A model generated the notes under the pieces. The model did no database searches. It was not told the DNA's origin and saw only the letters and a list, made by a program, of their open reading frames with translations. 64,000 nt of DNA, from contig OX597815.1 in assembly GCA_951406725.2 (NCBI GenBank), forward strand, positions 20,832,001 to 20,896,000, given 5' to 3'. This document shows, one piece after another, positions 720-50,994 of the stretch. Position 1 is the first letter of the stretch. Each line of letters begins with the position of its first letter. Source of the stretch: Octopus vulgaris (lineage: Eukaryota). The position numbers and the translations under genes are program-made.

Positions 720-921
720 AAACATGAAAGCAAAAAGAGAAAACACGACAACGTGAGGACGTGGAACAAGTATAGTGTTATTGGACGCTCAGGAAGGAAA
801 GAAAGAAGGAGGATTTAACGTTTCGAGTGGAGCTCTTTGTCAGAAACTTAGAAAAAGGAAAGGCCCAAGGAAGGGAAGACGAAGAAAGAAAATCGCCAAC
901 GATACACACGCGGTCACATTT
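720..921 (-). mobile_element. Penelope-like pLTR-type non-coding fragment with decayed hammerhead motif
   Basis: Shares GTATT..CGCTCAGGAAG..TTTCGAGNN..GCTCTT..CAGA with 25096-25285; ends at (TA)n. Confidence 0.6.
814..846 (-). ncRNA. Minimal hammerhead ribozyme motif (decayed, G8A)
   Basis: Minus strand ttt-CTGACAA-aGAGctccaCTC-GAAA-CG-TT-aaa; palindromic ACGT replaces helix III. Confidence 0.55.
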
Positions 922-1027
922 TATATATATATAAATCCTGAACTGAAAGACTTCGCCAGGTGGTGCTATTAAGTTAGACATGGCCTGGGCCAATACTGGC
1001 CAAAAGCTTTCTAAGTTATTCTAAGTT

Positions 1028-1246
1028 ATATATATATATATATATATATATATATATATATATATATATATATATATATATATATATATATATATATATA
1101 TGTATGTATGTATATATATATATATATATATATATATATGTATGTATGTATGTATGTATATATATATATATATATATATATATATATGTATGTATGTATG
1201 TATGTATATATATATATATATATATATATATATATATATATATATA
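1028..1246. repeat. (TA)n/(TATG)n compound microsatellite
   Basis: Direct inspection. Confidence 0.98.
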
Positions 1247-1942
1247 CACATACACAAACATACATACACTCCCACATATGCGTGCATATGCGCACACATA
1301 TACATACATGTTTCTATGTGTTTGAGTGTCCGTATTCCTGCGTGTTTACATGTCTGCGTAATTGTGTGTGTATGTCCGCGTGTATAAAGCATTATAGGTG
1401 TTAAAACTTCAGATCGGAATTATGTCATATCCATATAAAATCGAGCAAATTGTGGTCATGCTATTAATGTGTTCTTGAATATAGAGAATTTCTAAAACAT
1501 TCTGGTGAAGCAACCAACATTCCATGTGACTCTTTACTCTCCAGTTTCTGTCTGAATACACCTGGAATATCTCTGGTCTTTGTCGCTATAACGATGAGAA
1601 ACATGATGAAACAGAATAATCAGGGAAGATCAAAGAGGCCCATAATCAATATACCACGGCTGGTTAAAACTATTCTGACCGCTAGAAGATATGATACGCA
1701 TATTGTATGCAGTATATAATACAATATTACATTACATAGAAAAACAAATTCCTTTTGATAAATAACTTGCGACTGGATGCTGCAAGATCTAAAATTTAAT
1801 GCATTAACAATGTCCGGTGCAGCTATTGTTTACTTCCTTTACTTCTAATTTTATCAATTACTTCAGGAGCCTGCTTGAAATAGCAGCTATATCTCTTCAA
1901 ATCACATCCTACTTTCAGAAAAGTAATGCAATCCTATGTAAA

Positions 1943-2335
1943 TCTATATATATAAAGCTGAAGCTGTCTGTGTGCGGCAGGTTTGGTAGCCTTAAGCTAA
2001 CACTATCTCCTCCGAGACCCTGCGGCGCAAGTTGACCAAAATTGAGAGTATGATAGAAGAAGACTTGCTCTTCATTCTGTAGCAGATAAAATTCAAATCG
2101 GACCATGTTAAGACCAAAAATTATTTACATCAAAAAGCTGCTTTTTTTTTTCTATAAAAATCCCTATTTTTTACGATTTTTTGACTGCTGTGTCGCCATT
2201 TTTCGGTGTATTTCAACCAGAAAAATGATCACTTAAAGAGAATAACAAGCTACATAATGCCAAAGTTTTACTTTTTAAAAATTCCAATTCTAAAGGGTCG
2301 AAACAAACCCGAGCAACGCCGGGCGATACTGCTAG
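1943..2335 (+). mobile_element. Non-autonomous Helitron
   Basis: 5' TC(TATATATATAAAG), subterminal hairpin CCCGAGCAACGCCGGG, 3' CTAG, inserted between A1942 and T2336 with no TSD. Confidence 0.88.
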
Positions 2336-2974
2336 TTATTTCTAAAAGTAAGTGTCGTTAACGACTAGAAATATTTGATCATAGGCCAGCCCAGTCTGGA
2401 ATAGCTTACGGTTAACTAAATCTTGGAGCTAACACGAATTTATGGAAGCAGCCATTTGCTTCGAAAGTATATGCCTCACGATTTGATGTTATACGAGATA
2501 CTTTGGTCAGTACGTCCTCTCATGTTTTCAGACTGAACAATAACTTATGAGCGAAATTTGTTAGACAGAAACCGTATGGGACTGTATCGTGCGCGCGTAT
2601 ATGTGTATTAGAAGCGATTCAAACGAAGAGAAATTCATTCATGTTCCACAACGGTTGGTCTACGTCCACTTTATATTTCGTATCGTATGTGAACACTGAT
2701 ATAAGTACCAGACAAACTGCTGATGTCACTAAAATCGTCAAAAACTGGTAAGGATTATCAACATGATCACAGTCTAAGAACTAAACCTAGCAGTTTTATT
2801 CTAGTGTGTTCCTTACTAAGAATATCTCTCAACTACATAAACAAAAACAAGCCTAAAGAACTTAACACTAGGGTCAATTTCTTCGACTAAATTCATCAAG
2901 GCGAAGCCCCGGTAAGACAGAAGTCTAATGAGCGAAACACGTAGAAAAATGCACCATAAGTTGTGACTTGTATT

Positions 2975-3220
2975 TGTGTGTGTGTGTGTGTGTGTGTATG
3001 TTTGTGTGCGTGTGTCTGTATGTGTGTGTATGTATGTATATATATATATATATATATATATATATATATGTATGTATGTATACATACATATATATATACA
3101 TACACATACGTGTACATATTTATATATATATATGTGTGTATATATATATATGTATGCATACAACACGTGTACATATATATGTGTGTGTATACAGGCATAT
3201 ATATATATATATATATAAGT
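2975..3220. repeat. (TG)n/(TA)n compound microsatellite
   Basis: Direct inspection. Confidence 0.95.
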
Positions 3221-49463: not shown

Positions 49464-49642
49464 TATATGTATATGTGTTTGTATGTATGTACGTATGTAT
49501 ATATGGACTCTGAAATTTTAGAGTGAAATGGAACCAGTTTGAATGTTTCATGCTGTCAAAATATTTTCCCAAGTTACAGTACACAGACACGTACACACAC
49601 ACACATACTCGCATACATGCGCACACAACACAGACACACATA

Positions 49643-50174
49643 TATGTATGTATGTATGTATGTATGTATGTATGTATGTATGTATGTATGTATGTATGTA
49701 TGTATGCATGTATGTATGTATGTATGTATGTATGTATGTATGCATGCATGTATGTATGTATGTATGTATGTATGTATGTATGCATGTATGTATGTATGTA
49801 TGTATGTATGTATGTATGTATGTATGCATGTATGTATGCATGCATGTATGTATGCATGTATGTATGTATGTATGTATGTAAGTATGTATGCATGCATGTA
49901 TGTATGTATGTATGTATGTATGTACGTATGCATGTATGCATGTATGTATGTATGTATGTATGTATGTATGCATGTATGTATGTATGTATGTATGTATGTA
50001 TGTATGTATGCATGTATGTATGTATGTATGTATGCATGTATGTATGTATGTATGTATGTATGTATGTATGTATGTATGTATGTATGTATGTATGTATGTA
50101 TGTATGTATGCATGCATGTATGTATATATGTATGTATGTATGTATGTATGTATGTATGTATGTATGTATGTATG
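49643..50174. repeat. (TATG)n with CATG variants, about 530 bp
   Basis: Direct inspection; source of the 190-267 aa ORFs. Confidence 0.98.
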
Positions 50175-50352
50175 GATGTAGGCATGGTAAAGTAAGAGTT
50201 GTAAAGTATATTAAAATGACACTCTACTCCACCTCAGACCAGTCTGTTGATGACAGTATAAACAGCCGGGCATGGAGTGAAACTCAGAGTACATTGCCAA
50301 ACTATACGTTTATAGGGTTGTACTGAGAAAAAAGAATACTTAGTGTGAGGAA

Positions 50353-50569
50353 GGCGGCGAGCTGGCAGAATCGTTAGCACGCCAAGCAAAATGCTAAGCG
50401 GCGTTTCGTCCGTCTTTACGTTCTGGATTCAAATGCCAACTGGTCCACTATACCTTTCATCATTGTGGAATCGACAAAAAAGAAGTACTGATTGAGCTCA
50501 GAATCGACATAATCGACTTAGCCCCTTCTCTGAAATTGCTGGCCTTGTCCTAAAATTTGAATCAAATGT
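50353..50569 (+). mobile_element. SINE type B with 13-bp TSD
   Basis: TTAGTGTGAGGAA at 50340-50352 and 50570-50582. Confidence 0.92.
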
Positions 50570-50595
50570 TTAGTGTGAGGAATTGTTTATTTATA

Positions 50596-50994
50596 GAAAT
50601 ATTAAAATTTCTAAGTCTCTCTAAAGGAGTACTGGAAATTAACAGTTATCGCCAAGCTAATATGGCAGTCCATAAATATAAGACTAAAGCTGCTGTTGAT
50701 TAACTCCAAGAGGCCATCGCCTCTAGCTAGCTATATGACACACGAACCTGTGTCCATTATAACCTTCGAATAGGGAAATTCAGCCGCTTCCCCTTGCTGG
50801 TCAGGCATCTGCAGACATGTTTCAGAGTATTTGTCCTTTATCAATGCAGAATAGCCAGACCCTTTTCGAAGGTTATAATGGACACAGGTTCGTGTGTCCT
50901 ATAGCTAGCTAGAGGCGATGGCCTCTTGGAGCTAATCAACGGCAACTTTAGTCTTATATTTATGGACTGCCATATTAGCTTGGCGATAACTGTT
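50596..50994. mobile_element. Foldback element: 139-bp inverted arms, central hammerhead, 15-bp TSD
   Basis: Arms 50637-50775 and 50860-50998; TSD AATTGTTTATTTATA at 50581-50595 and 50995-51009. Confidence 0.9.
50809..50849 (-). ncRNA. Type-I minimal hammerhead ribozyme, U3-A8 core variant
   Basis: Minus strand ctgca-TTGATAA-AGGacaaatacTCT-GAAA-CATG-TC-tgcag; GUC triplet. Confidence 0.72.

Follow-up and report, generated by a model that had tools for sequence, protein, structure and literature searches.

Background

Minimal hammerhead ribozymes are carried in the pseudo-long terminal repeats (pLTRs) of metazoan Penelope-like elements (PLEs), and the account of Cervera and de la Pena (2014, PMC4209133) already gives a U3-A8 form of the core, an extra nucleotide after A9, pairs of motifs on opposite strands, single motifs from truncated PLEs and a low activity of the minimal motif in vitro. 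A preliminary description of the DNA analysed here, a 64,000-nt stretch of Octopus vulgaris contig OX597815.1 (hereafter the window; G000:C2:20832001-20896000 in a genome of 2.8 Gb and 227 contigs), had claimed seven such motifs in short non-coding elements and had taken these for protein-free ribozyme elements dependent on PLEs. Our analysis indicates, with a probability that we put at about 0.8, that the motifs are PLE 3' ends bearing the known minimal and likely dimer-dependent hammerhead, with four sites linked to PLEs and the site at 50809 forming part of a protein-free unit for whose copying PLE proteins were likely responsible.

Craig et al. (2021, PMC8557442) define the Neptune and Hydra clades of endonuclease-bearing PLEs and describe insertions with 5' truncation, an inverted 5' copy, an optional tail and (TA)n targets. 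In PMC11167929 reverse transcription is reported to begin internally, near the junction of pLTR and open reading frame (ORF), and two start sites of the reverse transcriptase (RT) explain the optional tail; hammerhead cleavage was assisted by protein and unnecessary for insertion in vitro, where uncleaved RNA was the main template. Animal genomes also hold non-LTR retrozymes, among them 350-390 bp mussel repeats, for which PLEs were named as the likely movers (Cervera and de la Pena 2020, PMC7229834). Li, Clavereau and Pollet (bioRxiv 10.64898/2026.07.22.740005) treat retrozymes of vertebrates, insects and a coral as non-autonomous PLE derivatives, accept minimal motifs as retrozymes too and report cleavage in one of nine Xenopus dimers. 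The literature already covers minimal PLE hammerheads, their U3-A8 core and animal retrozymes derived from PLEs. A repeat annotation of Octopus vulgaris (PMC13282606) gives 31 recently active Penelope-like families and its main text holds none of the words 'hammerhead', 'HHR' or 'ribozyme'; a literature search, with the family-wise hammerhead supplements of PMC8557442 and PMC4209133 outside its scope, found no paper devoted to cephalopod hammerheads or retrozymes.

Hammerhead motifs in the window

All seven type-I minimal hammerheads could be read where they had been placed, six on the minus strand and that at 44049-44084 on the plus strand. A strict descriptor demanding a C3-G8 or U3-A8 core without mismatch, GAAA, a palindrome in paired form and at least 3 bp in each of helices I and II gave three hits in the window, at 8462-8495 (+), 33697-33732 and 50814-50844, and none in any of 12 block-wise dinucleotide shuffles. 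It replaced an earlier descriptor with the C3-G8 core alone, which had recovered two of the seven sites together with many weak matches. With one mismatch allowed the window gave five hits (817 and 26200 were added) against a shuffle mean of 0.92 for a helix I of at least 3 bp and 0.33 for one of at least 4 bp, and a similar scan of 320 kb of flanks of the first 160 fetched loci gave 11 hits against 0, 1, 0, 1 and 0 in five shuffles. Strict scans put intact-looking motifs at about 0.3-0.5 per 10 kb of window and flanks, the flanks being biased towards PLE-rich sites. No hammerhead was present among the best 150 of 399 matches of an Rfam scan of the window, those being microsatellite-driven miRNA matches.

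Some of this picture would also be expected of chance matches in AT-rich repeat DNA (window GC 35%, with 109 tandem-repeat rows): the copies at 25190, 34017 and 44049 fail both scans and are so decayed that they are recognised only via their families, and a shuffled window yields on average about 0.9 one-mismatch hits. We give this explanation virtually no credence, as it is refuted by the shuffle counts and by the family alignments set out below, in which majority sequences restore the helices and the palindrome and sister families exchange base pairs while staying paired. The motifs are thus confirmed as genuine copies of a small hammerhead RNA motif already known from PLEs.

The preliminary description had missed an intact eighth motif, at 8462-8495 (+), whose host element has a 3' end similar by eye to those of Neptune elements and two more copies, in loci L040 and L089. 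Core and palindrome are both kept in only two of the seven copies first described (33693 and 50809); the other five, each with a core base, a helix or the palindrome lost, are probably inactive, and across the genome most hammerhead copies are probably decaying and inactive as well. The palindromes were as claimed save that CGATCG is only the inner part of an 8-nt palindrome, with U16.1 changed to A in the window copy. At least five unrelated sequence contexts had been proposed, and the motifs fall into six dispersed families, those at 34017 and 44049 being members of one. First-look searches of the genome, whose counts are candidates and not copy numbers, gave 2549 candidates for F1 (the site at 814), 4633 for F2 (25190), 2796 for F3 (26195), 1393 for F4 (33693), 2047 for F56 (34017 and 44049) and 2110 for F7 (50809). 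For each family 40 candidates were scored and 25-30 loci fetched. Coordinates of all elements are collected in Table 1.

Family-level fold

Family alignments were scored for core and palindrome in F1, F2, F4, F56 and F7, with F3 outside that scoring. The majority sequences bring back the core, helices and palindrome that individual window copies have lost, the core being C3UGANG8A...GAAA...UH or its U3-A8 variant in F1, F3, F4, F56 and F7. The U3-A8 pair was present in 24/25 copies of F56 and in 27 of the 28 F7 copies that aligned (two of 30 did not). F2 departs at one core position, with U at the normally invariant A6 in all 30 copies, and in this it differs family-wide from the minimal PLE hammerheads of PMC4209133. 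All 25 F1 copies have U17; 13 of the 25 keep C3-G8 and 11 show C3.A8, a share inflated by the mutated query. The palindrome is paired in F1 23/25, F2 29/30, F4 25/25, F56 25/25 and F7 26/28, and in 24 of 25 F4 loci the core (leaving out position 6), the palindrome, helix I and helix II are all retained, two locus pairs among these each being the arms of one insertion. Among these best hits the median distance from the family majority ranges from 0.7 to 4.6%, F4 being the youngest family at 0.7%.

Across 18 groups of scan hits several pair types occur per position in helices I and II; as the scan itself demands pairing, it is the shuffle control that bears the weight here. Helix pairs are swapped with pairing kept between sister families, as in L149 compared with F4 and L198 compared with F56, and variation within families is mostly decay. 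When two copies of the F4 motif are folded together the predicted structure holds helices I and II and an 8-bp intermolecular helix III, and for F4, and partly for F56 and F7, the lowest-energy prediction is a dimer. Both the proposed link to PLEs, for which hammerheads behind PLE ORFs speak (see below), and the proposed dimer fold mediated by the palindrome have gained support.

Three smaller observations concern related motifs. The F4 sister family at L149:1060-1480 has the same 3' end and tail and an inverted pair, with U-A in place of A.G at the helix II base and the palindrome ACGATTGT. A further small family, at L089 (minus strand 542) and L126:2916, has a U3-A8 hammerhead-like motif with a 4-nt AATT palindrome. 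A kinship of F1 and F2 rests on the hammerhead type common to both, judged by eye; among the matches listed, pairwise BLAST of the two gave only short or low-complexity ones.

Links to autonomous PLEs

Genome-wide, a first look gave 6136 GIY-YIG candidates, many of them in 781-aa open frames, and 19133 Hydra-type ORF candidates. At L192 the GIY-YIG domain scored above its Pfam cut-off and RVT_1 below (26.8 vs 29.6 bits). Hammerheads of the types found in the window lie 0.4-1.5 kb behind the ORF in autonomous Neptune and Hydra PLEs of the same genome, with a U3-A8 hammerhead following the ORF in five of 20 long PLE loci and one with a long helix II in nine of 16 Hydra-type loci.

Three of the window families run without a break into such ORFs. 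For F56, two of 25 loci (L035/L244 and L039/L245) continue from a GIY-YIG ORF via a common 3' untranslated region (UTR), 82% identical over 1003 nt, into the element, with RT and endonuclease (EN) matches in L244 and an EN match in L245. F56 5' ends form a ladder from -119 to -900, or from -119 to -378 when the two ORF-linked loci are set aside. One of 30 F2 loci is ORF-linked: L119/L246 reads through an RT thumb, a CxxxxCxxC linker, GIY-YIG and a C-rich 3' UTR into F2, and the F2 ladder of 5' ends extends from -50 to -310. Among the 30 long-copy loci of F3 (L211-L240), 16 have a Hydra-type protein match upstream on the same strand; in long copies the sequence continues for 2 kb upstream and enters a decayed endonuclease that has a CxCx5C linker, and the F3 5' ends are spread from -33 to -895. 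One such copy, L234, scores above the GIY-YIG cut-off and the decayed L220 below it. None of the joins between F2, F3 or F56 and a GIY-YIG ORF is interrupted by (TA)n, and the ORF-linked copies mostly contain stops.

The graded truncation together with the unbroken joins identifies four of the seven sites, 25190, 26195, 34017 and 44049, as 5'-truncated PLE ends. By linker, EN and RT motifs the parents of F2 and F56 are placed in the Neptune clade, with the C-terminal GIY-YIG and CX2-5CxxC linker that PMC8557442 gives for it, and the parent of F3 in the Hydra clade. The Hydra marks are the CxCX5C linker and the EN motifs CxxC and CxH, around conserved E and N, in L220, and DKT and RWR in the relative L264/L253, the sole place where an RT core was seen for F3; the published clade likewise has a C-terminal GIY-YIG, a CxCX5C linker, DKT and an RWK-like motif. 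The Hydra-type open frame at L264:400-3300 measures at least 967 aa, has long Asn-rich inserts between RT and endonuclease unlike the Hydra clade as described in PMC8557442, and gave no Pfam match.

No PLE RT or GIY-YIG ORF had been noticed in the window, and tblastn at E<=1e-4 with 23 stretches of PLE protein as queries found nothing there. Such an absence is what truncated PLE copies would lead one to expect and is no evidence of non-autonomy. A reading in which all six families are protein-free ribozyme elements dependent on PLEs, as had been proposed, can point to the predominance of non-coding copies of 150-300 nt, to F7 with no ORF, to the sharp 5' ends of F1 and F4 (35 stretches each) and to a hint of common machinery at L184, all taken up below; it is refuted for F2, F3 and F56 by their unbroken passage into GIY-YIG ORFs and their graded 5' truncation, and as a reading of all six we hold it to be very improbable. 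The claim of several protein-free elements thus falls for four of the seven sites and stands for F7 at 50809, and it may hold for the sites at 814 and 33693. Beside the F2 copy, about 600 nt at 25291-25895 separate its 5' end from the next (TA)n run; among PLE protein matches to this interval none had an E below 0.019, and the fetched loci contained no copy of it.

Insertion anatomy

Family copies share a fixed 3' end and differ at the 5' end, and most are 150-300 nt long and non-coding. Two classes of 3' end, 55-90 nt apart and corresponding to absence or presence of a tail, occur in F7 (about 225/280), F4 (about 156/230) and F3 (about 130/220), and no tail was seen in the F1, F2 and F56 samples. 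These classes match the optional PLE tail, which PMC11167929 attributes to the use of two start sites by RT, although the tails given for endonuclease-bearing PLEs in PMC8557442 measure 30-40 nt. A (TA)-type run follows the copy in F1 20/25, F2 28/30, F3 19/25, F4 25/25 and F56 21/25, against a background of 159/640 windows. Six of the seven elements had been said to abut (TA)n, and six motifs indeed lie 35-168 nt from a (TA)5+ run, that at 50809 being 2.4 kb from the nearest; the F4 pair at 33530..33840 has (TA)n outside both ends. An inverted 3' end upstream was found in F1 0/25, F2 2/30, F3 1/25, F4 18/25, F56 3/25 and F7 20/30. An F2 copy is immediately preceded by an inverted F1-like copy at L123 and L126, and in L126 no (TA)n separates the two.

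F7, a 362-nt protein-free unit

The F7 unit is 362 nt long, ORF-free and 41% GC, with one type-I hammerhead per unit, and 80 nt upstream of the hammerhead its sequence joins the unit's own 3' tail. This junction was spanned in 10 of the first 30 loci (nine places). Among 32 further full-length places, drawn from 43 BLAST rows and reduced to 30 independent ones by two pairs with common flanks, 28 extend at least 15 nt into the unit's own tail, of which the query held 3 nt; their start points are spread over unit positions 16 to 266, and the remaining four stop 2-9 nt from the junction. Locus L025 consists of an inverted copy and a complete head-to-tail dimer with a period of 362 nt, and the same junction recurs in two subfamilies with different loop 2 (L017 and L025). 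Folded as a circle the L025 unit reaches -121.5 kcal/mol compared with -82.4 +/- 6.2 for 60 shuffles. No same-strand ORF is joined to any of 62 F7 stretches; the sole near match, at L030, is separated from F7 by a long (TA)n run.

With its PLE tails and 5' inversions F7 fits a non-autonomous PLE, that is a retrozyme, and PLE proteins are likely to have copied it from RNA in tandem or circular form. Like the animal non-LTR retrozymes described, it is ORF-free, lies within 150-450 nt, has one type-I hammerhead per unit and occurs as head-to-tail copies and many monomers. It differs from the 2020 definition, which has a canonical hammerhead with contacts between loops 1 and 2, in its minimal U3-A8 type, and in the sample read it forms mostly insertions of 0.7-1.7 units and not long arrays, with PLE tails and 5' inversions seen directly. 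Chlamys PLEs of putatively non-autonomous kind, such as MRC1 (PMC8557442) are likewise non-coding with pLTRs and head-to-tail insertions; they are green algal, canonical hammerheads are mostly missing from them and they resemble a known autonomous 3' end, whereas no such match was found for F7.

Each F7 copy runs through the predicted cleavage site, and RT that read through both junction and cleavage site is fitted equally well by a re-ligated circle and by an uncut multimer. One might instead regard F7 as a tandemly repeated pLTR with which an autonomous PLE closes on its 3' side, or as transcribed from a single tandem array in the genome; the dispersed copies would then be truncated within the repeats and no circle would be involved. 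Neptune 3' UTRs of this genome do contain internal tandem repeats, the longest F7 copy spans about 1.7 units, and the copies read through the cleavage site as uncleaved RNA, the main template in vitro (PMC11167929), would. We find this unlikely, given that none of the 62 stretches is joined to an ORF (with long (TA)n at L030), that the same junction is found in both subfamilies and that the circle fold is far more stable than its shuffles.

A second candidate ORF-free tandem unit, outside the window, is the family at L061:668-1270 (the same place as L070), with a C3-G8 core, a long helix II, the 8-nt palindrome ACGTACGT and C17. Upstream and in the same orientation its 3' end is repeated, giving a period of 602 nt, with an inverted copy alongside, an arrangement seen in one place only.

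The F1 and F4 families

In each of F1 and F4 the 5' end is sharp in 35 stretches (25 loci and 10 further), the boundary lying about -14 to -32 from the query start in F4 and -62 to -85 in F1; as the same boundary appears in the 10 additional upstream stretches of each family, simple truncation is not supported for them. The exception is the F4 locus L058/L059, with a short AT-rich extension. Each family may represent a non-autonomous unit; alternatively, its members may be short copies made from the 5' end of PLE transcripts. Under the second possibility RT would have run from the tail behind the hammerhead of a 5' pLTR to the RNA start of an autonomous PLE and have stopped there, so fixing the 5' boundary; the sharp 5' ends suit it, as does the published internal initiation of RT (PMC11167929). 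It is weakened in that no ORF-bearing parent was found, though an F4 as young as 0.7% should have an intact one, the F4 search itself being weak. We regard it as a serious contender at somewhat under even odds.

Three candidate links or extensions were rejected: at L112 a (TA)n run lies between F1 and the ORF, at L184 the F4 piece joined to an ORF has no hammerhead, and at L068 the extension of a longer F4 copy is unique target sequence. At L184 (ORF-oriented 650-960) no (TA)n intervenes where an F4-like foldback meets an inverted piece of 50 nt and, with it, a young Neptune ORF truncated at its 5' end; the rest of the F4-like piece was not found at a Neptune 3' end. Two RNA templates possibly entered one insertion here. 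The join is a single, weak hint that F4 and Neptune use common machinery.

Mechanism and significance

From published PLE biochemistry, the GIY-YIG nuclease would nick AT-rich or (TA)n DNA, and RT would begin behind the hammerhead, at either of two sites, producing 3' ends with and without the 55-90 nt tail. It would mostly stop early, as is suggested by the footprint observed, ends of 150-300 nt that are often accompanied by an inverted second copy. For F7, whose copies have their own tail upstream and no ORF in those read, RT would have read across the point where 362-nt units meet in a multimeric or circular RNA. Two hammerheads are predicted to pair via the palindrome and to cut weakly, perhaps aided by PLE protein.

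A number of observations tell against this explanation. Every family sample consists of the best BLAST hits to the window copy and is biased to close copies. F7 adjoins a (TA)-type run in 10/30 loci, about the 25% of the background, with no preference seen. The inversion counts of F4 and F7 are inflated because the queries contained part of the inverted arm. In 35 F1 and 35 F4 stretches there is no ORF link and in 25 loci of each no head-to-tail junction, and the ORF-negative samples, with the 62 of F7, are small against 1393-2549 candidates per family. Since the longest F7 copy reaches about 1.7 units, an ORF further upstream would be compatible with it, and both cleavage and circular RNA, for F7 and in the overall explanation, are predictions. 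The family-wide U6 of F2 (30/30) and U17 of F1 (25/25) may mean weak or no activity. In the lowest-energy fold of a monomer with 30 nt of flank, helix I or II is lost in five of six families, F7 alone keeping both.

We further entertain, as a tentative proposal that we consider less likely than not, that the genome hosts several protein-free mini-PLEs (the 362-nt F7, the 602-nt unit at L061 and perhaps a 260-nt F4), whose hammerhead dimers would cut and circularise the RNA for a PLE RT to roll around the circle. PLE-moved retrozymes have so far been proposed from co-occurrence and sequence kinship (PMC7229834; bioRxiv 10.64898/2026.07.22.740005). If the proposal is true, insertions that form a ladder across the unit junction and bear PLE tails and 5' inversions would directly record the movement of retrozymes by PLE retrotransposition, and young intact 781-aa Neptune ORFs would be available for testing it. 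The results add an octopus genome to those rich in minimal PLE hammerheads, and the part most worth following is F7, an ORF-free unit whose insertions cross its own junction and bear PLE tails and inversions. With F7 and natural intact Neptune ORFs in one genome, both the partner and the form of the template, circle or uncut multimer, can be tested.

Feature coordinates and other repeats

Table 1 Hammerhead elements and an abundant repeat family in the window (positions are those of the window)
Feature	Position	Strand	Remarks
F1 element, about 210 nt	711..922	-	motif 814-846; sharp 5' end; G8 changed to A (C3.A8 mismatch); extra A after A9; palindrome ACGT; U at position 17
Eighth hammerhead element	8398..8594	+	motif 8462-8495; U3-A8 core; ACCGGT palindrome; C17; helix I of 7 bp; followed by (TA)n
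F2, 5'-truncated 3' end of Neptune-type PLE	25097..25298	-	motif 25190-25223; 3' end adjoins (TA)n; damaged helix I; U, not A, at position 6
F3, 5'-truncated 3' end of Hydra-clade PLE	26163..26322	-	motif 26195-26280; long helix II; 8-nt palindrome; U16.1 mutated
F4 forward copy with optional tail	33530..33768	-	motif 33693-33736; complete core; ACAATTGT palindrome; A.G mismatch at helix II base; sharp 5' end
F4 3' end, inverted truncated second copy	33765..33840	+	joined to 5' end of forward copy; PLE-type 5' inversion
F56 copy, truncated Neptune 3' end	33962..34199	-	motif 34017-34052; U3-A8 core; helix II and palindrome decayed
F56 copy, truncated Neptune 3' end	43922..44137	+	motif 44049-44084; U3-A8 core; 3' end adjoins (TA)n; A6 changed to G; helix II broken
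F7 copy with tail	50594..50862	-	motif 50809-50849; U3-A8 core; ACATGT palindrome; C17; long extended helix I
F7 3' end, inverted truncated second copy without tail	50860..50997	+	at 5' junction; creates foldback around hammerhead
Family with 184-nt period	14814-17319, 20732-20976, 35710-35947, 37274-37928, 44726-44963, 50331-50614		

The last family in Table 1 is an abundant repeat with many copies across the window and 2.7 copies of its internal period at 15699-16190. Two inverted repeat pairs, 38517-38886/39455-39828 and 45280-45625/60758-61102, are about 91-92% alike, and their frames gave no Pfam match and resemble LINE fragments by eye. A 388-nt repeat pair in opposite orientation (24172-24559 and 36311-36698) is 97% alike and its start resembles, again by eye, the head of a tRNA-derived SINE. 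At 9591-10040 a frame matches the Pfam domain RVP, a retroviral-type aspartyl protease, at 21.2 bits against a cut-off of 20.7, and this is likely the remnant of an LTR-retrotransposon.

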